A stretch of DNA of 64,000 nucleotides, from contig CAYTSI010000005.1 of NCBI GenBank assembly GCA_964440465.1, positions 151-64,150 on the forward strand, written 5' to 3'. The notes under the pieces are model-generated. The model was not told where the DNA came from. It did no database searches and saw only the letters and a list, made by a program, of their open reading frames with translations. Of the stretch, positions 41,290 to 52,820 are shown piece after piece. Every line of letters begins with the position of its first letter. The stretch's first letter is position 1. The translations under genes and the position numbers were made by a program. Source of the DNA: an uncultured Spirochaetales bacterium. Lineage in GTDB: Bacteria > Spirochaetota > Spirochaetia > SPDA01 > CAZSGZ01.

Positions 41290-42864
41290 CTACTCCGGCG
41301 GCATGGTGGTGAGGGTTAGAAACGCCTCTCCAACTTTTACGTCGGTGCTGCCCGTCTCGCTCTGCTTTTTTCGCAGTCCCCGTGTTTGAGCGACAACCGC
41401 CTTCGCGTCTCCAAACACTTCGTAACGCTCGCCGTCAATGTAATCGATAATGACGTTTGCCGGCGGCGGTTCCTTTGAGAAGGCCGTTACCATGAGATGT
41501 TCGACGCCGTACGGCGGGACAACTTCAAATTCGTACGAGTATTTCACTACCCGGTTAACCATATCCATGCCGATATAAAAGGATTCTTCTAAAAGCACCT
41601 TTTCTCCGGTTGCCAAATCGTAGGTAAGCTGGAGGAACGCCGGCTGGTTGACCTTGAAATAGAGCTGTAGAGATTCTCCGCCTGTAAAAACGAGAACATC
41701 TCCATTTCTGCCTCTGTTTGTCCATATGTCTACCTTCAGTCCCCCGTCGGTAAAGGCGCCGTCGGCTATGGCATACTGTGTTTTCAGTGCTTCTTCGGCG
41801 TTTTGCGGTTTTATGTCATATCCCCCGGGGGCGGAGGAAACCGGAAACTCGGCAAAACCGCTGCCGAGGCTTTGCCCCGTCTCGACCGACCTCGCGACGA
41901 CCATCAGTTCAATGGAATCGCCTTTTTCCCAGTATGTGCCCCGCACTGCAATTTTGCTCTGTCCCCGTGTAAGCCGGGTATTGACGAGATTTTCAAGTTT
42001 CCGTGAAGCATAATTGCCGAAAGCGCTGGTAAAGTCGGAGTTCTGATACAAAAGAGGCGGGACTTGAAAGGAGCCGCCTTGTACCTGCTGCGTGGCGAGC
42101 ATAACGACGATTTTGTCCAGCGCGGCGTCGAGGTCGGGGACAGAGCCTTTCTGCAGGGTGGTTATTTTATTTCTAATCTCACCTTCTAAGCGGAAAAAGG
42201 TGTCCGCGTTGGTAATCCCGCCGACATTTCCCGCGGGGAAAAAACCGCTTTCGTAGCTCCCTTCCGCTAAGACATTGAAAATTGACCGGTTTTCGAGTAC
42301 ATCGGAAAAATACGGCAGTATGCCGATATATATGTCGATGGCGGACCCGATATCTCCCGCGCGTTCGGCATTTTCCGCCCGGTTTTTCCCCTGGACGATC
42401 TTTTGAAGCGCCTCCGTCCCTCTGCTCAGGAACGTATTCCGAAGCGGCCCCTTCGCGGCGTAGGCGAGGGCGTAGTGATGCTTCCAGTCGCCTGCAATTT
42501 CAAAGTCGATGTTGGTCAGTTTCATATTGCTGATGCTCCTGCTGACCATGGATACACTGGAGGACGCCGTCCCGCCGCTATCGGCCGTCGACGTGGTAAT
42601 GGTACTGGAAACCTGTACCCTGATTTTACGAATTAAATCGTCTAACGCGCCGGTTTTCGCGGCTTCCAGGGACTCGGCATCATCCGCTCCCCGCTCAGCC
42701 ATCCCGAATCCGGTAATGTGCCGCGTATCGGAGTAGGGTGATTGTAAGCCGTACTCCCGCGCCCATTCCGGCAGGCTTTGAGCGCCGGCAGGTCCGGGAA
42801 CTAGTACCGCCGCAAAGAGAAAAAGCGGCAGCGCGGCATGGAGTGTCACTTTTTTCATCATCAC
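41290..42864 (-). CDS. Secreted protein with an N-terminal LPP20-like domain and a C-terminal DUF4384-like domain.
   Basis: It has a signal peptide, an ITGFGMAERGADDAESLEAAKTGALDDL LPP20-like segment, and a C-terminal beta-rich domain. The annotation is tentative. Confidence 0.45.
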   Translation of the reverse strand: MMMKKVTLHAALPLFLFAAVLVPGPAGAQSLPEWAREYGLQSPYSDTRHITGFGMAERGADDAESLEAAKTGALDDLIRKIRVQVSSTITTSTADSGGTASSSVSMVSRSISNMKLTNIDFEIAGDWKHHYALAYAAKGPLRNTFLSRGTEALQKIVQGKNRAENAERAGDIGSAIDIYIGILPYFSDVLENRSIFNVLAEGSYESGFFPAGNVGGITNADTFFRLEGEIRNKITTLQKGSVPDLDAALDKIVVMLATQQVQGGSFQVPPLLYQNSDFTSAFGNYASRKLENLVNTRLTRGQSKIAVRGTYWEKGDSIELMVVARSVETGQSLGSGFAEFPVSSAPGGYDIKPQNAEEALKTQYAIADGAFTDGGLKVDIWTNRGRNGDVLVFTGGESLQLYFKVNQPAFLQLTYDLATGEKVLLEESFYIGMDMVNRVVKYSYEFEVVPPYGVEHLMVTAFSKEPPPANVIIDYIDGERYEVFGDAKAVVAQTRGLRKKQSETGSTDVKVGEAFLTLTTMPPE

Positions 42865-42909: not shown

Positions 42910-43671
42910 CTATACTCCTCGAACTTCGCAGTTGATGCCCGTTTCTCGGACGATTTCAGCCGCGCGGCGCAGTTCAGTCCCGAAATAGGGACAGAGCTCG
43001 CTGAACGCGGGGTCGAGGGTCGTGCCGGGCCTGAATTGCGTCAGAATGTACCTGCCCGCGCTTTGCGGGTCCCGGGCCGCCGAAGTATAAGCCGATTTCA
43101 GGAGTTCCGCTATTGCTGCCGCCTCCTCCGTCCCCGCTATACCCGGGGCCATGGTGGTGCGGAATTCGTGGCGCACCCCGGAAGAGATGATGATTTCAAT
43201 GCTTTGCCGCAGGGCGTTTTCCACAGTGTCGACAGCCGCGGATGCCGGAGGGACAGAGCTGCTGAGAAGGCCGTATTTCTCCGGGACCGTTTTGATGTCC
43301 ATGGCAATATAGTCGGTCCGTGCAAGCAGCGGACGAAGCAGGCGGGGAAAGCAGCCGTTCGTGTCGAGTTTTACTTTTAAACCGAGGTTTTTACAGAAAT
43401 CGATAAACCCTATCAGGTCCGTATGCAGAAGCGGTTCGCCGCCGGTAACGCAGACCCCCCCGAGGACGGAAGCGCGTTTTGCTACAAACCGCCGCACCTC
43501 TTCAATCGGCAGCAGGTCATCCGGAAACGGCGGTATAACGAGCTCGGGATTGTGGCAGTAGGGGCAGCGGAGGTTGCAGCCCGGTGTAAACACCGTGGCC
43601 GCAACCTCTCCCGGAAAGTCGATTAAGGTCGTTTTAACCAGCCCTGCCCTGGTAAGCGTCATGGCCGGCAC
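42910..43671 (-). CDS. nrdG: Anaerobic ribonucleoside-triphosphate reductase activating protein (radical SAM).
   Basis: CNLRCPYCHN is the radical-SAM CxxxCxxC motif. The size and operon context fit NrdG. Confidence 0.85.
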   Translation of the reverse strand: MPAMTLTRAGLVKTTLIDFPGEVAATVFTPGCNLRCPYCHNPELVIPPFPDDLLPIEEVRRFVAKRASVLGGVCVTGGEPLLHTDLIGFIDFCKNLGLKVKLDTNGCFPRLLRPLLARTDYIAMDIKTVPEKYGLLSSSVPPASAAVDTVENALRQSIEIIISSGVRHEFRTTMAPGIAGTEEAAAIAELLKSAYTSAARDPQSAGRYILTQFRPGTTLDPAFSELCPYFGTELRRAAEIVRETGINCEVRGV

Positions 43672-43691
43672 ACTAACCGGAGAAAACGACC

Positions 43692-44228
43692 CTAGGAGAC
43701 GCCGGCTTCCGCAAGTGAAAACACCTGCTCCATGGTTTCGGTGTTATTCGCCCGAAACACCTCGTGATCCTGGACGTCGAAAAAGATCACCGTTGGAGAG
43801 GCAAGTACCTGATGCTCTATCGCCGAATCCATTCCTTCGGGGGTATCAACATCGACGGAACTGCCGGGCATGGAAAGCTTGTTTACATATTCTTTAACCG
43901 GAGGACAATTCGGGCATGTGCCGCGGTAAAAAAACGTATAGGAAGCGGCCGATTCCGCGATGTCCCGGGGAGGGGACCCGCCGGTGCCCATCTCTTTTCC
44001 CGCGAATTCCGGCTGCCTCGAGCCGTGTTTTATCATGTTTTTCGGTTCCGAAAACAGCTTTCGGTAGTCGTATTCCTCCCGCTTCCCCTTGTTCCAATTT
44101 GCCACGGAACGGTAATATCCGACAATCCGCGTATATACTTCGGTTTTCGTACCGGTCACGCCCCGCAGATGCTGTTGTAATTCGGCTATTTCTTTGTCCA
44201 CCTGTTCAACTGTTCGTGTCGCGTTCAT
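43692..44228 (-). CDS. Stand-alone NrdD C-terminal glycyl-radical domain fused to a thioredoxin-like domain. It overlaps the nrdD stop by ATGA.
   Basis: TRIVGYYRSVANWNKGKREEY matches the class III RNR glycyl-radical loop (RxxGY...WNxGK.E). A downstream CPNCPP motif sits in a Trx-like segment. Confidence 0.6.
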   Translation of the reverse strand: MNATRTVEQVDKEIAELQQHLRGVTGTKTEVYTRIVGYYRSVANWNKGKREEYDYRKLFSEPKNMIKHGSRQPEFAGKEMGTGGSPPRDIAESAASYTFFYRGTCPNCPPVKEYVNKLSMPGSSVDVDTPEGMDSAIEHQVLASPTVIFFDVQDHEVFRANNTETMEQVFSLAEAGVS

Positions 44229-46351
44229 TTCTTCTCTCCCTTCTGTGTTTTAACCAGTTTCTGCTTTTCTGTTTGCAGTTCATCGAGCCGCCGCTGGATT
44301 TTCTCCCGTTCTTCATCGGCGCATTTCGGGCAGGCGAAATGTTCACCGTTTAAATATCCGTGTATCGGGCAGATAGAGAACGTCGGCGAGATGGTAAAAT
44401 AGGGGAGCCTGTAATTCCAGGCAATGGCGCGCACGAGATTTCTGCATGCCTCCCAGTTGTCCACGGCTTCACCCAGAAATCCATGGAATACAGTCCCCCC
44501 TGTATATTTAATTTGAAGCTCGTCCTGATGGTCGAGGGCCTCAAAAATGTCCGAAGTAAAATCGACGGGCATCTGCGTCGAATTGGTGTAGAAGGGCTCC
44601 TGAACGCCGCTGGTAATAATGTCCGGATACCGCTCTCTGTCGTGTTTTGCCAGCCTGTAGGAGGTGCTCTCCGCGGGTGTTGCCTCAAGATTGAACAGGT
44701 CTCCCGTGTCTTCCTGCAGGTCCGCAAGGTGCCGCCGCATGTAGTCGAGAATTTCCAGAGCAAATTCGCGGCCTGTTTCGGTGGTCATGTCCTCTCCTGA
44801 AAAATTAAGAGTGCATTCGTTCATCCCCACGATGCCGATAGTCGAAAAGTGGTTGTCCAGGTGTTTCAGGTACCGTTTGGTATATGGAAACAGTCCGGCT
44901 TCCATCAGCCTGTTGATTACCTTCCGTTTAATAGTGAGGGACTCCGCGGCGGTGTCCATCAGTTCGGTAAGCCGGTGGAAGAAATCCACTTTCGTGTTCG
45001 AAAGATATCCGATTCTCGGAAGGTTGATGGTTACCACCCCGATAGACCCGGTAAACTCGTCGGAACCGAAGAGGCCGCCCCCCCGTTTCCGGAGTTCCCG
45101 CTTGTCCAGCTGCAGCCGGCAGCACATGGAGCGGACATCCCCGGGATTCAGGTCGCTGTTGACGAAATTCTGAAAGTAGGGTGTTCCGTACTTCGAGGTC
45201 ATTTCAAACAGCAGTTTCGCGTTTTCCGAATCCCAGTTGAAATCGTCGGTAATGTTGTAGGTGGGTATAGGATATTGAAACCCCCGGCCGTTGGCGTCAC
45301 CGTCAATCATAAGATGAATGAAAGCCTTGTTGATGAGGTCCATCTCCCGCTGACAGTCGCCGTAGGTAAAGTCAAGATCTTCACCCCCCACAATTGCCGG
45401 CCGTTCCTGCAGGTCGGAAGGAACATTCCAGTCCAGGGTAATGTTGGTGAACGGCGCCTGACTTCCCCAGCGGGACGGTGTATTAACACCGAAAATAAAA
45501 CTCTGGATTGCCTGTTTTACCTGTTCGAAGCTTAAATCATCAATTTTTACAAAGGGGGCCAAGTAGGTGTCGAAACTCGAAAGCGCCTGCGCGCCGGCCC
45601 ATTCGTTCTGCATAATCCCTAAAAAATTGACAATCTGCTGAATTAAGGTGTTTAAGTGCTTTGCCGGTTTCGACGTAATTTTATCGGGAACGCCGCCTAA
45701 GCCTTCCATAATCAGCTGACGCAGGGACCAGCCGGCGCAGTAGCCGGAAAACATTGACAGATCGTGGATATGAAAATCGGCATTCTGATGGGCCATGGAA
45801 ACGTCCTCGGGATAGATGTTTTTAAGCCAGTAATTTGCCGTGATGGTACCCGAATTGTGAAGGACCAGCCCGCCTAATGAAAAATTAACGTTGGCGTTTT
45901 CGTTTACCCGCCAGTCGGACTGGCTTAAGTATCCGTCCATGGTTGAGCTGATGTCCAGTGTCAGCTTTCTGGTGTCCCTTATTATCTCATGTTTGGCCCG
46001 GTAGATAATATAGGCTTTTGCAATATCGAACTGCTTCCTTTCCATCAGGACCGTTTCCACTAAGTCCTGTATCTCCTCTATTGCCGGTACCGAGTTCGGA
46101 TGCCGTGCGGACATTACCTTCCGCATCCGTTCCTCCACCTGACTTGTAAGCTCCTCTACAAAGTCGAGGTCTTCCTCTCCCCGGACTGCCCGGACCGCTT
46201 TCCCGACGGCCCCGGCAATTTTCCATCGGTCATACTTTTCCAATTTCCCGTTTCTTTTAATAACCTGCCGTATCACTGCCCCTGCAGCCGGCTTCTCGGA
46301 ACTCTCTATGCCGAGAAACTCCTCCCAATAGCTGCGTCCTGTATGCTCCAA
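44225..46351 (-). CDS. nrdD: Anaerobic ribonucleoside-triphosphate reductase large protein (class III RNR). It has an ATP-cone and a C-terminal Zn ribbon but lacks the glycyl-radical loop.
   Basis: The N-terminal ATP-cone is VIKRNGKLEKYDRWKI. The NrdD core is present. The C-terminus is CPIHGY...CPKC followed by a K/E-rich tail with no RxxGY motif. Confidence 0.8.
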   Translation of the reverse strand: MEHTGRSYWEEFLGIESSEKPAAGAVIRQVIKRNGKLEKYDRWKIAGAVGKAVRAVRGEEDLDFVEELTSQVEERMRKVMSARHPNSVPAIEEIQDLVETVLMERKQFDIAKAYIIYRAKHEIIRDTRKLTLDISSTMDGYLSQSDWRVNENANVNFSLGGLVLHNSGTITANYWLKNIYPEDVSMAHQNADFHIHDLSMFSGYCAGWSLRQLIMEGLGGVPDKITSKPAKHLNTLIQQIVNFLGIMQNEWAGAQALSSFDTYLAPFVKIDDLSFEQVKQAIQSFIFGVNTPSRWGSQAPFTNITLDWNVPSDLQERPAIVGGEDLDFTYGDCQREMDLINKAFIHLMIDGDANGRGFQYPIPTYNITDDFNWDSENAKLLFEMTSKYGTPYFQNFVNSDLNPGDVRSMCCRLQLDKRELRKRGGGLFGSDEFTGSIGVVTINLPRIGYLSNTKVDFFHRLTELMDTAAESLTIKRKVINRLMEAGLFPYTKRYLKHLDNHFSTIGIVGMNECTLNFSGEDMTTETGREFALEILDYMRRHLADLQEDTGDLFNLEATPAESTSYRLAKHDRERYPDIITSGVQEPFYTNSTQMPVDFTSDIFEALDHQDELQIKYTGGTVFHGFLGEAVDNWEACRNLVRAIAWNYRLPYFTISPTFSICPIHGYLNGEHFACPKCADEEREKIQRRLDELQTEKQKLVKTQKGEKK

Positions 46352-46367
46352 TTGGTCCCCCTTCCCC

Positions 46368-46835
46368 TCATGACGATTTATTTGACAACTTTCCTATTTC
46401 ATCGATAAATTGATCAACATTTTCAAACATCCGGTATACCGAGGCAAACCGGACATACCCCACCATATCAACGTCGAATAATTTTGAAAGCACCATTTCC
46501 CCTAATTTCCGCGAGGTAATCTCATGGGTGCTTTTTGCCTGCATGGCCGCTTCATCTTCCAATTCGTGAAGCATTTCTTCTACTTTCAGCTGGGGGACCG
46601 GCCGTTTTTCCAGGGAAATTTGAATACCCCGTTCGAGTTTGGTCAAATCGAACTGCTGCCGCCGGCCGTCACGCTTTACAACCATCAGCTTTTTTTCTTC
46701 AATGTGTTCGTAGGATGTGAATCGATACCCGCAGTGCAGACATTCCCTCCGCCGGCGTATGGACGTGCCGCTGGCGTTCTGTCTGGACTCGAGGACCCTG
46801 TCTTCGTGACTTTCACAAAGCGGGCATTTCACAAC
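46368..46835 (-). CDS. nrdR: Transcriptional repressor NrdR. The probable GTG start is near 46832-46835, and the ORF-track start at 46964 is too far upstream.
   Basis: VKCPLCESHEDRVLESR...CLHCGYRF is the NrdR zinc ribbon. It is followed by an ATP-cone (LMVVKRDGRRQQFDLTKL). Confidence 0.8.
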   Translation of the reverse strand, partial: VVKCPLCESHEDRVLESRQNASGTSIRRRRECLHCGYRFTSYEHIEEKKLMVVKRDGRRQQFDLTKLERGIQISLEKRPVPQLKVEEMLHELEDEAAMQAKSTHEITSRKLGEMVLSKLFDVDMVGYVRFASVYRMFENVDQFIDEIGKLSNKSS

Positions 46836-46865
46836 CTTCCCCCAATTAACGCGGCCGCCCAAAAC

Positions 46866-46923
46866 CTCTATATATAGTGGAATTAGCCGCAACAATATCA
46901 CTATATCACACCATATATTGTGT
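46866..46923 (-). promoter_or_regulatory. Two NrdR-box-like palindromes (cCTCTATATATAGTGG at about 46866-46881 and ACACCATATATTGTGT at 46908-46923) upstream of nrdR.
   Basis: Both match the NrdR box consensus acaCwAtATaTwGtgt. They lie just upstream of the proposed nrdR start on the same strand. Confidence 0.55.
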
Positions 46924-47039
46924 TGCAACACAATTCTAATATTTTTATCGACATTTCTTGCCAAACCCTAAACGGATGTGTGTAAAATTTTCGGTAACGG
47001 GTATATACTGATACCAATGACCACTGTAAGGAGATATGA

Positions 47040-50000
47040 ATGAAACGGACCGTAATGCTGATTGCCCTTTTACTAGGCAGCATACTGCTTGTTTTTACCG
47101 GCTGCACCAGGGAGGAAGCCCCCGGGGCGAAACCTGCTACGGAGGAAAACACGGAGGAGATGAGTGAAAGCCAAAAAATCCAGCGGCAGCTGTATCAAGA
47201 CGCGGCAATTAACGAGGACCTAGCCTCCTATGACATTACCTACTACGAGCCGGACTCGATACAAACGGTAGCGGCGCCGGTGAAGGAATCGGACGAACCG
47301 TTTCAAATTGTCGATTACGGTCCCGTCGAGGAGCTTCCCCCGGAGGTCGTTTATCCGTCGATGTATGTCGTTTTCTCCCAGCCGGTGGTGCCTCTGCGGC
47401 AGCTGGGAGAACCTATGCGTTCGTCTGACATTATGTCAATTGACCCGCCCATACAAGGTACCTTCCGATGGTACGGGACCAGGCTTTTGAGTTTTGACGC
47501 CGATGAAAAGGCCCTTCCCCAGCGGCGTTACACCGTTTCAATTTCGGATACCGCGCGGTCATTAGGCGGCAAAGAGCTGACGGGAGAGAAATCCTTCAGT
47601 TTTCATACCGAATATCTTTCGATTCGGGACTTTTTTACCGGTACAGCGGAGGGGGACTACAGCTTAGATGATGTGCCCCCAGACGAAGCAAAAACAATCC
47701 ACATCGTATTTTCCCACAAGGTCAACCTCAATGTTATCAAAAATTATCTGTCCGTCGAAGCGGGAGGCCGCGGCTATAATTTTACCATTGCCCGTCCCGA
47801 CGACCCGGAAAATCGGCTGTCCGAAGAAATCAAGGAACGGACGGCAGTCCTGCATGTGGAAGGTCTGTTCCCTGAAGATACCGATGTTACCGTAACAGTA
47901 CGGAAAGGGGCGCGGAGTGAAGCCGATTTTATCGGTACGCCGGTGAACATAACACGGAGTTTTCATACCCTCAGGCCCTTCCGGTTTGTGGATTACGATA
48001 CCTGTTCCTGGTCCTTTCCCCGGAGCAGGCAGGGCGAAGCAAATCCGGTATATCTAAAGTTCAGTCATTCCGTAAAAGCCGAGGACCTCACGGGTAAGGT
48101 CCGCACCAATCCGGCAATGGAAATAACGGAAGAGAATGTCGAGGTTTACCGGGACCGGGTCCGGATCAACAATCTGCCCGTTGCCCCCGAGTCGGTATAC
48201 ACTCTGTTTCTGGACGCCGGTATTACCGACGTGTACGGGAGAAAACTACAAAGGAGCGAACAGGTCCGAGTCGAGGTCCCTCCGGCGGAACGCTACGCCT
48301 ATTTTCCGAATACCGGGCCCCGGATGCTGGAGGCCGCGTTCCCGAAGCGGATTATGTGGGAGCACCAGAATGTTTTCGAAGGCCTGTGGAAGGCGGATAC
48401 CGTTTCCGACCCCTACGGGACGTTCAGTCATGAGGAGCTCAGGCCCTACAATTTCGGAGAAATCGAGAGGAATAAACGGTATTTTGAGGTCTACAATTTC
48501 AAGGACTATTTGAACAGTGAAGGATACGGCTGGGTCGGCTTCTCCTGGAACTTCGGGAAGAGGAACAACGACGGCACCATGCCGACATGGACGAAACGGG
48601 ACCTTCGGCTGCAGGTTACCGATTTGGGCCTTACGGTCCGCCACGGTTACAATAAAATTATTACCCTTGTTACTTCCCTCGCGACAGGCGAGGCGGTAGA
48701 GGGTGCCGAGGTAAGCATTACGCGGAAACAGGCCGTTAAAAAGAGCACCGAAACGGATGCCGACGGCTTAGCGGTATTCGAGCTGGAAGAAGGGGAATAC
48801 TTTGAATATTTCGGGGTCCCCGGACGGACCTATGAAAATGAACTGCGGATACGGGTCAAGTACGGAAACGACAAAATAGAATTTAAACCGAATTACAGTC
48901 ACGATACGTGGCGTTCCAATATATACAACACCGCGGCGCCGACACAGATCGGGACCCCGAATATGGTCACCTATCTGTTTACCGACCGCAAACTGTACAA
49001 GCCGGGGGAAACGGTCACCTTCAGAGGTATCGACCGGAACCAGCAGTACGGTAAATACACGCCTTTTTCCGGCGGGTACGATATCGCCGTTCGTGAGTCC
49101 CGGTACCGCGGAAGAGAAATAACCCGTTTCCGCGGTGAAACAACCGGTTCCGGCGGGTTGTACGGGAGTTTTACCCTGCCGGAGGACGCGGAACCGGGGT
49201 GGTATGAAATTGCTTACAGCCGGGACGAAAAAACGGTCCGGGAGCTGTTCCAGGTGGCCCACTTCCGGCGGCTTCTCTTTTCCGTCGATATGTCGAGTCC
49301 CGACATTACCCATTATCAGGGGGACACGGTGAGTTTTACCGTTGCCTCGGAATATCTTGCAGGCGGGGCTCTCAGCCGGGGAAATTACGAGGTCTATTGG
49401 TCGAAACGTCCGGTTACCTACACGCCGCCGGGAGATGACTGGAAGGATTACCGGTTCGGACCGGAAGGGTACGACAGCAGACACAGCCTGGAAACTGCCG
49501 AAGGCAGCCTGCCGCCGACGGGTACTATCAATGTGAAGCAGAAAACATCACCCGAGGGCATCGAGGGGAGGGCCTATGTTTATGAAGCAGAAGCGCGAAT
49601 CAGCGACGTCAGCAATCAGCTTGTAGCAAAGCGGGAGGGTGTAACGGTCCATCCCGCCGCTTTTTACATCGGCGCCCGGGTGAAGGACGCTGCCGGCTCC
49701 TGGTATACCTTTGTGGAAAAGGGAAAGGAGATGGAGTGTGAGGTCCGGCTGGTTACACCGGAAGGCGGCCTTGTAAAAGACGGAGAAAAAATCAGCCTTA
49801 CAGGTGAATTGTATAAAATCGAGTGGAAACTGGCCCAGCAGCAGGGGGTGTATGATACCATCAACTCCCGCTGGGAGCGGGTGGAGACGAAAATCGCCGA
49901 CGAGGAAATAACCCTAAGCAGCGGAAAGGGGACGGCGCGGTTTACCCCCGGGGAGAGCGGTTCGTATTATATCAAATTTACCGCCGAGGACGCCATGGAG

Positions 50001-52820
50001 CGGAAAGCGGTAACGGAACTGAGCTTGTACGCCACCGGCGGCGGGTGGGTCCGCTGGGGGTCCGGAGACGCGGACATGCTGGAGCTGAAACCGGACAAGC
50101 AGCTGTATAAGCCGGGAGATACGGCGAAAATCCTGCTGCAGTCTCCCATTCCCGAAGGGGACTACCTGATAACCGTCGAGCGGGAGGGAATTTTCAATGA
50201 GAGAAAAATCAGCGTGGAAGGATCGGCGAAGCTGATCGAGGTCCCGATTACGGAGGACTATCTGCCGGTTGTGTATGTCAGCGTTTCCTCCTATACGGTG
50301 AGGACCGGCAAACCGGAGCATACCTACTTCGAACCCGATTTAGACAAGCCGAAGGGACTCTACGGCGTTACGCCGCTGCGGGTTGAAACGGCGGCGAAAT
50401 TGATCGATATCAGTATCGAACCGGCGGCACCTGCCTATTTGCCGGGGGCTGAGGCGGAAGTGGTCCTTACCGCGACACAAAACGGCAGGCCCGTGGAAAA
50501 CGCGGAGCTTACCTTTTTGGCAGTCGACCGCGGGGTTTTAGACCTCATCAACTACCATATTACGGACCCGCTTGCATTTTTCTACAGTGAAGGACGGTTT
50601 CCCCTGGCCGTGGAGGGGGCGGATTCCCGGTCCCTCTTAATCGACCCGGTTACCTACGACGTGCCCGACCTGGCAGGGGGCGACGGGAAAGACGGAGAAG
50701 ACGAGGGAGGCGCCGGTATGGGGATGAAAAGGCGGGAGGATTTTAACCCTACCGCGGTTTTCGAGCCGTTTCTCAGTACCGATGAAGAGGGCAGAGTAAC
50801 GGTGCGCTTTACCCTTCCCGATACCCTTACAACGTACCGCTTAACCGCCGTTGCGGTACGGGACAACAGCTTCGGTATTCAGGAAAAAGAGCTGAAGGTC
50901 CAGAATCCCATCAACGTAAAAACCGCCTTTCCGCGGCGTCTCCGCTACCGGGACACCGCCGTCGGCAGCGTGCTGCTTACCAATTTAGACGGCAAAGAGC
51001 ACGAAGTTACCCTGAATATCGAATCGGACATTCTCGGTATCGGAGGAAAAAACTCCAAGACCGTTGCCATACCCGCGGCGTCCACCTTGGAAGTGCCGTT
51101 TCAGCTCTTAGCTGTTTCGCCGGGTACGGCGGAAATTACGGTCACCACGAAGTCCGAAGTCCTGGAAGAACAGCTTGTGGAAACACTAATTGTTGAAAAG
51201 CCCTACATTTTCGAAACATTTGCCACTATCGGGCAGGCGGAGGACTCCGCGGGAGAGGGGATTGTACTTCCTTCCTATGTCGACGACGATGAGGGGAGCC
51301 TTACCATTAACCTTTCCGGTTCCCGGGCCGCCTCGTTAGGAGAGGCAATCGACTATGTAATCGGATATCCGTACGGCTGCATGGAGCAGCGGGCGAGCAA
51401 ACTCTTGCCGCTGGTGCTTTTAGAGGATTATGTCGACGATTTCGCTTTGGAAAATCCCGTCGGGGACATCAGGGGAACGGTGCAGGCCGACCTCGACTTG
51501 TGGGGAGCGTATCAGCGTTCCGACGGGGGGTTCCCCTTCTGGCCGGTCCGGGAAGGTGTATATTCATCCTACTATGCCACTGTCCGTGCCGGACACCTCC
51601 TGGCCCTCGCACGGGACCGGGGCTACACGATTCCGGACGGCCTCAGTGTTCCCGGGCTGCTCGACTATCTGGCCAATCCCCCCTCCTCCGCGCGGGGGAA
51701 CAATTACCTCATGCTCTACGGGCTCTATGTCCGCTCCCTCCTCGGTGCCGGAGTTTCCGGGGAGGCGGCCCGCTATTTTGCCAGGGGTGATGAAATTGGT
51801 ATTTCAGGATACGGATTTTTAGGGCTTATTTACCTGGACCAAAACCAGGACAATCAGGCGGAGCAGTGCCTGAACAGAATTAAGCAGTTTGTCCGGCCCG
51901 GTACCCGGTCCGTTGATCTAACGGAAACATACGAAAGCTCCTCGTTTTATAATTCCCAGGTTGAGCAGCTGGCGCTGTTTCTCATGCTTTACAGCCGGAT
52001 CGACCCCGAAAGCGATATGGTAACCAGGATTACCAACACCCTCATGGACAGACAGAAGGGGGGAATCTGGAAAAATACCGCCGATACAAACTGGGCCATT
52101 CAGGCCTTTACCTCATTACTGCAAGCCGAAGGCGGGGGAGGGCCCGATTTTGCCGCGGAGGTGACAATCGACGGTGAGACAATCGCGGAAGCTGAAATCG
52201 ATTCGATCGCGGAAATTTTCAACCGGAAGCTGCCCCTGTCGGGAAGCGTGCTTACGGGATTCGACCGGGACACCATGTATCCCCTTACATTTACAAAAGA
52301 GGGGGCGGGCCGCCTCTACTATACCGCGAGTCTGCGTTACGCAATTCCTTCGGAAATAAGCTACCCCCGGGACGAGGGGATAGGGATTGTCTATGAAATC
52401 AGCACCGTAGACGGGCAGAAGGTGGAGGGTGCTGCCCTTACCGTCGGTAAAACGTACCGTCTGAAAGCGGTAGTTTCCAGCCACCGCGGCCGGAGCTACG
52501 TAGCTGTCCGTCTGCCCGTGCCGTCGGGGGCGGAAATCCTCGATGCCGCTTTCGTTACCACACCGAAGTACGACGAATTTCAGGACCCGGACGTCGACTG
52601 GTCCCGGTATGTTCCATTCGGGTCGAAAATATTCGACAACGAAGTGCGCTATTTCTGGGACGAGTTCCCCCGGGGGCGGCAGGAGGTGAGTTTTCTCTTC
52701 CGGACGACCAGCGGCGGTGTTTTTCCCACGCCTCCGGCAACGGCGGAATGTATGTACGAACCGGAAATTTTCGGCCGGACCGGGGGGAGGATCTTTATTA
52801 TCAAACGGGATGAGGAGTAG
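47040..52820 (+). CDS. Bacterial alpha-2-macroglobulin lipoprotein of 1926 aa with an apparently intact thioester motif.
   Basis: The lipobox is VFTGC. MG-domain repeats are present. GYPYGCMEQRAS is the thioester CxEQ motif. Adjacency to pbpC is the classic bacterial A2M arrangement. Confidence 0.85.
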   Translation: MKRTVMLIALLLGSILLVFTGCTREEAPGAKPATEENTEEMSESQKIQRQLYQDAAINEDLASYDITYYEPDSIQTVAAPVKESDEPFQIVDYGPVEELPPEVVYPSMYVVFSQPVVPLRQLGEPMRSSDIMSIDPPIQGTFRWYGTRLLSFDADEKALPQRRYTVSISDTARSLGGKELTGEKSFSFHTEYLSIRDFFTGTAEGDYSLDDVPPDEAKTIHIVFSHKVNLNVIKNYLSVEAGGRGYNFTIARPDDPENRLSEEIKERTAVLHVEGLFPEDTDVTVTVRKGARSEADFIGTPVNITRSFHTLRPFRFVDYDTCSWSFPRSRQGEANPVYLKFSHSVKAEDLTGKVRTNPAMEITEENVEVYRDRVRINNLPVAPESVYTLFLDAGITDVYGRKLQRSEQVRVEVPPAERYAYFPNTGPRMLEAAFPKRIMWEHQNVFEGLWKADTVSDPYGTFSHEELRPYNFGEIERNKRYFEVYNFKDYLNSEGYGWVGFSWNFGKRNNDGTMPTWTKRDLRLQVTDLGLTVRHGYNKIITLVTSLATGEAVEGAEVSITRKQAVKKSTETDADGLAVFELEEGEYFEYFGVPGRTYENELRIRVKYGNDKIEFKPNYSHDTWRSNIYNTAAPTQIGTPNMVTYLFTDRKLYKPGETVTFRGIDRNQQYGKYTPFSGGYDIAVRESRYRGREITRFRGETTGSGGLYGSFTLPEDAEPGWYEIAYSRDEKTVRELFQVAHFRRLLFSVDMSSPDITHYQGDTVSFTVASEYLAGGALSRGNYEVYWSKRPVTYTPPGDDWKDYRFGPEGYDSRHSLETAEGSLPPTGTINVKQKTSPEGIEGRAYVYEAEARISDVSNQLVAKREGVTVHPAAFYIGARVKDAAGSWYTFVEKGKEMECEVRLVTPEGGLVKDGEKISLTGELYKIEWKLAQQQGVYDTINSRWERVETKIADEEITLSSGKGTARFTPGESGSYYIKFTAEDAMERKAVTELSLYATGGGWVRWGSGDADMLELKPDKQLYKPGDTAKILLQSPIPEGDYLITVEREGIFNERKISVEGSAKLIEVPITEDYLPVVYVSVSSYTVRTGKPEHTYFEPDLDKPKGLYGVTPLRVETAAKLIDISIEPAAPAYLPGAEAEVVLTATQNGRPVENAELTFLAVDRGVLDLINYHITDPLAFFYSEGRFPLAVEGADSRSLLIDPVTYDVPDLAGGDGKDGEDEGGAGMGMKRREDFNPTAVFEPFLSTDEEGRVTVRFTLPDTLTTYRLTAVAVRDNSFGIQEKELKVQNPINVKTAFPRRLRYRDTAVGSVLLTNLDGKEHEVTLNIESDILGIGGKNSKTVAIPAASTLEVPFQLLAVSPGTAEITVTTKSEVLEEQLVETLIVEKPYIFETFATIGQAEDSAGEGIVLPSYVDDDEGSLTINLSGSRAASLGEAIDYVIGYPYGCMEQRASKLLPLVLLEDYVDDFALENPVGDIRGTVQADLDLWGAYQRSDGGFPFWPVREGVYSSYYATVRAGHLLALARDRGYTIPDGLSVPGLLDYLANPPSSARGNNYLMLYGLYVRSLLGAGVSGEAARYFARGDEIGISGYGFLGLIYLDQNQDNQAEQCLNRIKQFVRPGTRSVDLTETYESSSFYNSQVEQLALFLMLYSRIDPESDMVTRITNTLMDRQKGGIWKNTADTNWAIQAFTSLLQAEGGGGPDFAAEVTIDGETIAEAEIDSIAEIFNRKLPLSGSVLTGFDRDTMYPLTFTKEGAGRLYYTASLRYAIPSEISYPRDEGIGIVYEISTVDGQKVEGAALTVGKTYRLKAVVSSHRGRSYVAVRLPVPSGAEILDAAFVTTPKYDEFQDPDVDWSRYVPFGSKIFDNEVRYFWDEFPRGRQEVSFLFRTTSGGVFPTPPATAECMYEPEIFGRTGGRIFIIKRDEE

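Follow-up and report, generated by a model that had tools for sequence, protein, structure and literature searches.

Glycyl-radical enzymes are defined as single chains, whose C-terminal radical domain must flip out of the barrel for activation. Here we describe a locus of an uncultured Spirochaetales bacterium (GCA_964440465.1, contig CAYTSI010000005.1) in which the glycyl-radical domain (GRD) belonging to the anaerobic, class III ribonucleotide reductase (RNR) is encoded by a gene of its own. In the window, i.e. the whole stretch of 64 kb that was analysed, four co-directional genes on the minus strand (42910-46964) code for the regulator NrdR, the NrdD core (large subunit), a small subunit combining the GRD with a thioredoxin-like domain, and the activase NrdG. 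We think it probable that this operon, presumably repressed by NrdR, encodes a genuine two-subunit class III RNR.

Relation to described systems

The canonical class III enzymes NrdD/NrdG, known from T4, E. coli, T. maritima (4coi/4u3e) and P. copri (8p23), resemble the system described here in the ATP-cone, the barrel and the finger-loop cysteines, and also in the zinc ribbon, the RxxGY loop, the radical-SAM activase and the control by NrdR. In contrast to canonical NrdD, the GRD is found here on a separate chain and carries a thioredoxin fold, about 55 residues are additional, and the predicted zinc site is of the Cys3His type (Cys4 in T4).

NrdD2, the thioredoxin-dependent class III RNR of Neisseria bacilliformis (Wei et al. 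2014, as summarised in PMC4493059 and PMC9669993), shares with the core the third cysteine (CC) and the glutamate of the T. maritima E495 column. Different from NrdD2, the methionine of the finger loop is kept (MCCR instead of SCCR) and the presumed redoxin is tethered to the radical domain instead of being a free thioredoxin. The same core (76% identity in the protein P0498), the Gly loop, the CPNCPP domain and the nrdR-nrdD-nrdG operon are found, too, in unsplit NrdD-GRD-thioredoxin fusions. These, however, consist of one polypeptide, in which the zinc ribbon leads straight into EVYTRIVGYY without the two helices present in the split form. As far as we can tell, the unsplit proteins are themselves uncharacterised. 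A survey of RNR fusions lists Lachnospiraceae bacterium TWA4 as the sole case of a grx::nrdD fusion (PMC6187632). Since this survey required 90% coverage of the NrdD profile, it would miss the split family, and any survey requiring near-full NrdD coverage would miss or mis-score the small protein.

Stand-alone glycyl-radical proteins are known as spare parts of pyruvate formate-lyase (PFL), namely YfiD/GrcA and Y06I of T4 (PMC13450708, PMC8683613). YfiD/GrcA can be activated as a free protein and works in trans for PFL (PMC13450708). A review of June 2026 reports stand-alone radical proteins for formate lyases only and regards the other families as undetermined (PMC13450708). Like the small subunit, YfiD/GrcA is a small stand-alone GRD acting in trans with a large barrel and activated by the cognate activase. 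GrcA, however, is a facultative replacement for an enzyme with a GRD of its own, belongs to the PFL family and contains no redoxin, whereas the GRD described here would be obligate in trans, belongs to the NrdD family and is proposed to dock through a dedicated helix. It does not replace the GRD of a partner that has one: the partner lacks this domain in all 78 loci with both genes and in 119 of 120 homologues.

A catalytic chain divided between two adjacent genes has been described for the class II RNR NrdJa/NrdJb of Pseudomonas aeruginosa (Crona et al. 2015, cited in PMC9669993). According to the account given there, the C-terminal piece likewise carries the part responsible for turnover and reduction, and the first chain has an additional folded element through which the two are proposed to associate, but the RNR class and the cofactor (adenosylcobalamin) are different. 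In the Grx::ATP-cone::NrdB protein of Facklamia ignava the fused glutaredoxin (Grx) is an efficient RNR reductant (PMC6187632). Here, too, a redoxin is fused to the radical-bearing RNR component, but the protein belongs to class I, carries an N-terminal GrxC-type domain on the ferritin-like subunit and depends on glutathione. Otherwise the literature found on RNR splits and fusions deals with splits by phage introns, inteins and homing endonuclease genes only. No class III RNR whose radical subunit is separate was found in the literature searched, whose scope did not extend to subscription-only papers and RNRdb.

Core and small subunit share one NrdD profile

The core matches the Pfam family NRDD (PF13597) from position 1 to 538 of 562 (593 bits, cut-off 26.2; E 7e-178), NCBIfam NF006126 from position 2 to 664 of 684 (1086.8 bits, cut-off 548) and TIGR02487 (482.5 bits, cut-off 326). 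Its relatives in the PDB are 8p23, 4coi and 1h78. Profile coverage stops at position 538 of NRDD, and the RxxGY loop is not found on the core polypeptide, which continues behind the CPKC of the zinc ribbon with a tail of 31 amino acids (ADEEREKIQRRLDELQTEKQKLVKTQKGEKK) followed by the stop codon. The missing part is found in the next gene: residues 28-59 of the small protein match NRDD positions 532-562 with 30.1 bits. These matches confirm the sequence-only reading, which had proposed a 708-aa NrdD with ATP-cone, catalytic core and zinc ribbon but without RxxGY, and an alignment of the N-terminal part of the small open reading frame (ORF) to the NrdD radical domain.

The identity among core homologues is 73-100%. 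In 40 of 40 species parsed, MCCRL, NLE, YCAGWS and the C-x2-H...C-x2-C pattern are invariant. Profile, cysteines and zinc ribbon characterise the core as an NrdD; with the glycyl loop present in trans only, its sequence represents a variant architecture of this family.

For the small subunit we aligned 34 homologues, showing a mean identity of about 45-50% to the protein of the window. Invariant in this alignment are G26, E30, Y32, R34-I-V-G37-Y-Y-R40, W45, N46, G48 and K49 in the radical part and R102, C105 and C108 (within the CPNCPPV motif), V111, P145-T-V147, E156 and R159 in the redoxin part. An AlphaFold2 (AF2) model calculated from this alignment (mean predicted local distance difference test score, pLDDT, 77) contains a helix at 7-22, a beta-hairpin at 32-35/38-41 with Gly37 at its tip and a helix at 47-55. 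This predicted helix-hairpin-helix is the layout of a glycyl-radical domain. The following linker is modelled with a pLDDT below 50 at residues 67-84, the thioredoxin fold of residues 96-170 with more than 90. The sequence-only reading had already recognised a glycyl loop joined to a CPNCPP redoxin; its placement of the loop at the very N-terminus did not hold, since a helix of about 20 residues precedes it.

In the model the C-terminal half shows the features of a thioredoxin, namely the beta-alpha-beta-alpha-beta-beta-alpha fold, a cis-Pro loop and a CxxC motif where helix 1 begins. The top 50 PDB structures listed by Foldseek are thioredoxins or thioredoxin-fold domains, including a few C-terminal domains of DsbD (E about 1e-4). 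At sequence level this half matches TIGR00411 and 1fo5 (MJ0307-type thioredoxins) weakly, with Pfam and NCBIfam scores below the cut-offs. NRDD is the only Pfam family matched above threshold by the small protein; the Gly_radical family of PFL (PF01228) is not matched at this level. No full-length match above cut-off was obtained in Pfam or NCBIfam, the best being short matches to NrdD models. Database names of the small protein are "hypothetical", "glutaredoxin" and "ribonucleoside-triphosphate reductase". Two homologues, P0353 (317 aa) and P0377 (345 aa), carry an acidic, Cys-containing linker of 150-200 residues between Gly loop and redoxin, and their active site reads CPNCPA.

The split is conserved among spirochaetes

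We scanned one genome per GTDB species, found a relative in at least 574 species and analysed the best 80 loci. These are labelled Spirochaetota, Spirochaetia, Treponema or Marispirochaeta with one exception, a bin labelled Collinsella (L066), and include the cultured strains T. socranskii ATCC 35535 and T. bryantii. In 78 of the 80 loci no Gly loop follows in the ORF that encodes the zinc ribbon, and RIVGYYR is found in an ORF of its own; in the other two the small gene is present without a core. A continuous ORF through the junction was found in none of the best 80 loci. In agreement with this, 119 of the 120 nearest core homologues end after the zinc ribbon and a helix.

In the window, the core gene and the small gene overlap by ATGA. 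Among the loci, the distance varies from -4 (ATGA) to +346 nt, with a ribosome-binding site of the GGAGG type in front of the small gene. In most species the spacer is 13-346 nt long and contains stops in every frame, and the small gene has a Shine-Dalgarno (SD) sequence of its own. The split is thus common to the orthologues, as the sequence-only reading had suggested to check, while the ATGA junction is not uniform. Five contigs, assembled independently of each other from metagenomes of microbial mats, encode the identical 178-aa protein, each time beside the same 708-aa core. Compared with a relative of 88% identity, the small gene exhibits a ratio of nonsynonymous to synonymous substitution rates (dN/dS) of 0.26 overall, 0.12 in the helix and GRD and 0.35 in the thioredoxin domain, and is under purifying selection. 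A profile search through all of 1.84 billion cluster representatives (50% identity) yielded 157 proteins at E<=1e-30, nearly all of 130-255 aa. A search for homologues of the small protein yielded 993 matches; that all of them are small is no evidence on its own, because matches longer than about 1.75 times the query seem to be missing from this set. The data support two genuine genes. The split characterises a large lineage of spirochaetes and is not a peculiarity of this genome.

The sequence-only reading had preferred two genes to a frameshift, which is borne out, but had kept a homopolymer error at the junction in mind. The explanation by an indel from sequencing or assembly, or by an ordinary nrdD that a frameshift has recently turned into a pseudogene, has nothing in its favour beyond this homopolymer-rich junction. 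It is ruled out by the same sequence in five assemblies from different samples, the split with variable spacers in 78 species, the purifying selection on the small gene and the conservation of helices specific to the break point (see below), and the probability left to it is negligible. Alternatively, programmed ribosomal frameshifting at the ATGA might still yield one continuous polypeptide, in which case the split would be only apparent. The overlap itself, the A-rich junction of the window (GAGAAGAAATGA) and the frame of the small ORF, with 21 open nt upstream of the ATG until a stop is reached, would be compatible with such a mechanism. This interval of 21 nt, however, lacks a canonical slippery heptamer, the stop-containing spacers and separate SD sequences of most species speak against it, and in some species the small gene is preceded by a predicted NrdR-regulated promoter of its own. 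We therefore reject frameshifting, too, as exceedingly improbable. With five assemblies, 78 of 80 loci and the dN/dS value at hand, error, pseudogene and obligatory frameshift fusion can be excluded as general explanations.

Two predicted helices at the break point

In single-chain relatives the zinc ribbon passes directly into the Gly loop. The split forms contain about 55 extra residues at the break, of which 21-32 follow the CxxC on the core and about 20 precede "GTxTEVYT" on the small protein. A core tail of 21-32 aa was present in 40 of 40 species measured, whereas the unsplit P0498 has no such tail. Both pieces show a heptad pattern. In the core tails the hydrophobic fraction at a/d positions is 0.58 compared to 0.20 elsewhere (about 3.6 standard deviations above shuffled sequences), in the N-termini of the small proteins it is 0.87 compared to 0.22 (about 15.6 standard deviations). 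The mean net charge is positive for the core tails and negative for the N-terminal helices of the small proteins. The coiled-coil-like tail noted in the sequence-only reading thereby found its counterpart in a matching heptad helix on the small protein. When both chains were concatenated, AF2 predicted helices at 675-704 (core tail, pLDDT about 93) and 715-730 (pLDDT 86-93 for both). From sequence and model we infer that an antiparallel association of the two helices replaces the covalent link.

Other observations give this pairing little or no support. The correlation of helix charges per species is weak (Pearson -0.33, permutation p 0.06), and the lengths of core tail and small N-terminal helix do not covary. 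Furthermore, the core is poorly modelled in the concatenated prediction (mean pLDDT 60.7) and the Gly loop is of low confidence. Both are due to the fact that only four core homologues were correctly aligned (alignment A4); with unsplit rows or more than four core rows (A2, A3) MAFFT misplaced the small homologues.

Active site, likely reductant and proposed mechanism

Aligned with T. maritima NrdD (4coi), the motif SM409C410C411RL of the core falls on 328-SCCR-331, with C410 and C411 corresponding to 329 and 330. YC205AGWS, which contains the bottom-face cysteine, aligns with Cys125 and FNLE556ATPAE with FNIE495QVPAE, while P. copri NrdD exhibits Leu in the Glu556 column. Residue 495 of T. 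maritima defines the column of the proton-donor glutamate (Burnim et al. 2022), and NrdD2 enzymes combine a third cysteine with this glutamate, some of them also having the methionine (Aurelius et al. 2015). Third cysteine and glutamate were found in 40 of 40 species; the core has, by its sequence, the residue pattern of thioredoxin-capable class III enzymes. Because of these two NrdD2 residues, the tethered redoxin is likely to be the reductant for turnover. This fits the link to thioredoxin-dependent NrdDs made in the sequence-only reading.

According to our proposal, the small subunit would supply its glycyl-radical domain to the core in trans. Its N-terminal amphipathic helix would pair with the K/E-rich C-terminal helix of the core and put the Gly37 hairpin at the position it has in single-chain NrdD, just after the zinc ribbon. 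By analogy with the canonical enzymes, NrdG and S-adenosylmethionine would abstract a hydrogen from Gly37, and the glycyl radical would oxidise a finger-loop cysteine to the thiyl radical starting nucleotide reduction. The substrate would be reduced at the cost of the Cys205-Cys41x dithiol, with Glu556 as a presumed proton relay. The CPNC domain, on its disordered linker of about 35 residues, would then re-reduce the active-site disulfide as free thioredoxin does for NrdD2, and would itself have to be recharged by some reductase.

Several points speak against the redoxin as the reductant. The finger loop retains Met409 (MCCR), and methionine at this place has been linked to the use of formate; most double-Cys NrdDs carry the components for both routes (Burnim et al. 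2022). E. coli thioredoxin failed to support the NrdD of T. maritima (Aurelius et al. 2015), and the redoxin domain resembles known thioredoxins only weakly in sequence (E 0.02-1e-4). Formate could thus be the reductant or an alternative reductant. In this case the split would be real and the radical donated in trans, but reduction would proceed with formate via a Met-Cys thiosulfuranyl route. The redoxin would then have another task; for example, it might sense the redox state or gate the docking, protect or repair active-site cysteines, or assist the activase. Automated JGI names reading "(formate)" and the dN/dS of the thioredoxin domain, which exceeds that of the GRD, would agree with this explanation. 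Nevertheless we consider it unlikely. Glu556 and the third cysteine, the NrdD2 signature of formate-independent reduction, are invariant, and so are CPNC and the cis-Pro across homologues with a mean identity of 45%. The redoxin stays joined to the GRD through fusion, fission and NrdG-fusion variants, and in F. ignava a fused Grx is a proven RNR reductant. A different explanation would be that the small protein is a spare part of the GrcA/YfiD kind for a full-length NrdD encoded elsewhere, the 708-aa core being a degenerate or regulatory paralogue. Such proteins exist for PFL, and one uncultured Treponema has an orphan small-subunit gene (L018, see below). However, the core retains every catalytic residue at high conservation, in 78 loci it stands in the NrdR-regulated operon directly before the small gene and nrdG, the matching helices are confined to split forms and missing in P0498, and a spare part needs no partner devoid of the domain in every species. 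This leaves the spare-part explanation very improbable.

Going beyond the two-subunit enzyme, the small subunit may be an exchangeable cartridge of radical and reductant, which is activated by NrdG off the enzyme as a free 20-kDa protein, docks by the helix pair and is swapped after cleavage by O2 at the glycyl radical. We put this forward tentatively, as an idea with less than even chances. If it is true, the cell would re-make just the 20-kDa part, separately controlled by NrdR in some species, and the class III RNR of spirochaetes would truly consist of two components, in analogy to alpha/beta of class I. Furthermore, it would be the first glycyl-radical enzyme outside the formate lyases with a stand-alone radical protein and the first obligate use of such a protein; the orphan copy and the fusions of GRD, thioredoxin domain and NrdG described below would be variations on this theme.

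Altogether, the sequences describe a new variant in the architecture of a well-known class of enzymes; it is widespread in spirochaetes, and the mechanism proposed for it is plausible. In a naturally split NrdD, radical installation, docking and radical transfer become separable biochemically, and the covalent attachment of a redoxin to the radical domain is relevant to the question in which way class III RNRs of the thioredoxin type are re-reduced. Cultured Treponema from the human mouth and from the rumen (T. socranskii, T. bryantii) show the trait, and for this lineage "anaerobic RNR" is therefore an annotation that conceals the need for two genes.

Origin and variants of the small subunit

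The unsplit P0498 is a full-length protein of 869 aa with the synteny nrdR-nrdD-nrdG. Its junction reads CPRCGGEAEVYTRIVGYY, followed by a linker and CPNCPP, and contains no break-point helices. Cluster mates from other assemblies comprise 851 and 876 aa, one of them from a metagenome-assembled genome (MAG) at NCBI with the same synteny. Together with P0498, the unsplit NrdD-GRD-thioredoxin proteins from metagenomes are P0514, P0515, P0124, P0143 and P0164. P0124, P0143 and P0164, unsplit fragments obtained with the junction as query, show the zinc ribbon, EVY(S/T)RIVGYYR, a linker and the CPNCPP thioredoxin domain. The ORFs of P0124 and P0143 are open to the contig edge and are followed by nrdG; P0124 has a short insert of 22 residues at the break site. 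In a fourth protein, P0234, the C-terminal domain carries a different CxxC (CTAC). In a midpoint-rooted neighbour-joining tree of the core P0498 is placed on a long branch near the root. This position agrees with a sister lineage, but such a tree does not test the root. The simplest reading of these sequences is that an NrdD with a C-terminal redoxin came first, and that its gene was later divided and gained two helices at the break.

Besides these proteins, some variants of uncertain status were observed. The metagenomic P0268 (255 aa) and P0346 (320 aa) combine GRD, thioredoxin domain and radical-SAM NrdG in one ORF. Both seem to be incomplete, with P0346 starting within the Gly loop and P0268 ending early in its radical-SAM domain; they may represent a real fusion or a frameshift artefact. 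In an uncultured Treponema MAG (CALAUH010000329.1, L018:3980-4519) an orphan small-subunit gene encodes 179 aa with helix, RIVGYY loop and CPNCPP domain. Neither an nrdD core nor nrdG is located within 4 kb on either side; among the neighbours are a gene for a HExxH-motif protein and other non-RNR genes. Perhaps a mobile region carries here an additional "spare" copy. A short ORF on a long NCBI contig (528 kb), P0230 with 178 aa, corresponds to the last ~180 residues of an ordinary NrdD with NLEATPAE, zinc ribbon and Gly loop but no redoxin. In another lineage, the gene may thus be broken at a different place or frameshifted.

Predicted regulation by NrdR

NrdR was identified by TIGR00244 (E 4.6e-50) and the Pfam domains Zn_ribbon_NrdR and ATP-cone. 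On identical contigs the nrdR gene is called with 154 aa, i.e. from GTG 46832 behind a ribosome-binding site (GGGGGAAGG). This GTG is most likely the start instead of TTG 46964 of the mechanically derived ORF, which had been used in the sequence-only reading. With this start, the two NrdR boxes predicted there ahead of nrdR, and found again at the positions given in Table 1, are located in the promoter and not inside the gene. They are 43 bp apart (centre to centre) and are the only two matches in 64 kb, compared to 0.2 expected by chance. Judged by sequence, the arrangement is that of the NrdR regulon, with tandem 16-bp boxes in helical phase at a promoter. The promoter-like site was found by a consensus scan and agrees with the consensus at 9 of 12 positions, with TG in front of the -10 element.

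NrdR-box-like sites were detected in the spacer between core and small gene, too, in four Treponema loci (L019, L044 of T. socranskii, L051 and L061). Their density is 2.4 per kb in these spacers compared to 0.02 per kb in core coding sequence. In L019 and L051 they form pairs 42 bp apart, similar to the distance in the window, and in L019 a TTTACA -35 element is located between the two boxes. The boxes in the spacers argue for separate expression and tie the small gene to the RNR regulon; these sequences imply that in some Treponema the small gene and nrdG can form an independently NrdR-controlled unit. In L028, a sequence of about 40 nt (GTAGCCCCCTTCGAGGGCGAGAAGTTCGGGTCAGCATAT) occurs twice as a tandem direct repeat within the spacer of 346 nt, which also includes further hairpin-like sequence.

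Features of the locus and neighbouring genes

NrdG matches TIGR02495 (NrdG2) with 170.9 bits (cut-off 131.15; E 2e-50), which confirms nrdG as the gene following the small ORF. Its radical SAM motif CNLRCPYC (CxxxCxxC) covers residues 32-39 of the 253-aa ORF, and ATG 43662 is probably the start codon. All features of the operon are listed in Table 1.

Table 1. Genes, protein regions and predicted regulatory sites of the nrd operon (positions in the window; residue numbers refer to the respective protein)
Feature	Position	Strand	Description
nrdR	46368..46832	-	154 aa, GTG start; repressor with zinc ribbon and ATP-cone
nrdD core (large subunit)	44225..46351	-	708 aa, without glycyl-radical domain
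Small subunit gene	43692..44228	-	178 aa; helix, glycyl-radical domain, linker, thioredoxin-like domain
nrdG activase	42910..43662	-	250 aa from ATG 43662; alternative GTG start 43671
ATP-cone of core	45986..46267	-	aa 29-122; PF03477 E 6e-21
Finger-loop motif of core, M409-C410-C411-R412	45116..45127	-	aligns with T. maritima 328-SCCR-331
Zinc ribbon of core, C661-x2-H664...C674-x2-C677	44321..44371	-	read from sequence (CPIH...CPKC)
C-terminal K/E-rich amphipathic helix of core	44228..44320	-	aa 678-708; proposed docking helix
N-terminal helix of small subunit	44163..44210	-	aa 7-22 (AF2); proposed partner of core tail
Glycyl-radical loop of small subunit	44052..44147	-	aa 28-59; TRIVG37YYRSVANWNKGKREEY; G37 codon 44118-44120
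Linker of small subunit, predicted disordered	43944..44051	-	aa 60-95; length and sequence vary among the 34 aligned homologues
Thioredoxin-fold domain of small subunit	43719..43943	-	aa 96-170; C105-P-N-C108-P-P at 43905-43916; cis-Pro loop S-P145-T-V
Predicted NrdR box 1	46908..46923		ACACCATATATTGTGT, 1 mismatch to ACACWATATATWGTGT; overlaps -35/spacer of promoter-like site
Predicted NrdR box 2	46865..46880		CCTCTATATATAGTGG, 3 mismatches to ACACWATATATWGTGT
Sigma-70-like promoter	46900..46928	-	TTGCAA, 17 nt spacer, TG-extended TATAGT; consensus match only

The operon is flanked by a gene for a 524-aa lipoprotein with LPP20 domain (41290-42864, minus strand) on one side and by a gene for a 1926-aa protein resembling bacterial alpha-2-macroglobulin (47040-52820, plus strand) on the other. 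Both neighbours recur on identical metagenomic contigs. The alpha-2-macroglobulin-like gene converges on a full-length cobalamin riboswitch (RF00174, 52892-53065, minus strand; 50.7 bits, gathering score 31.5) and ends 72 nt away from it. No plausible ORF on the same strand follows this riboswitch within the window, and it may control an antisense or non-coding RNA.

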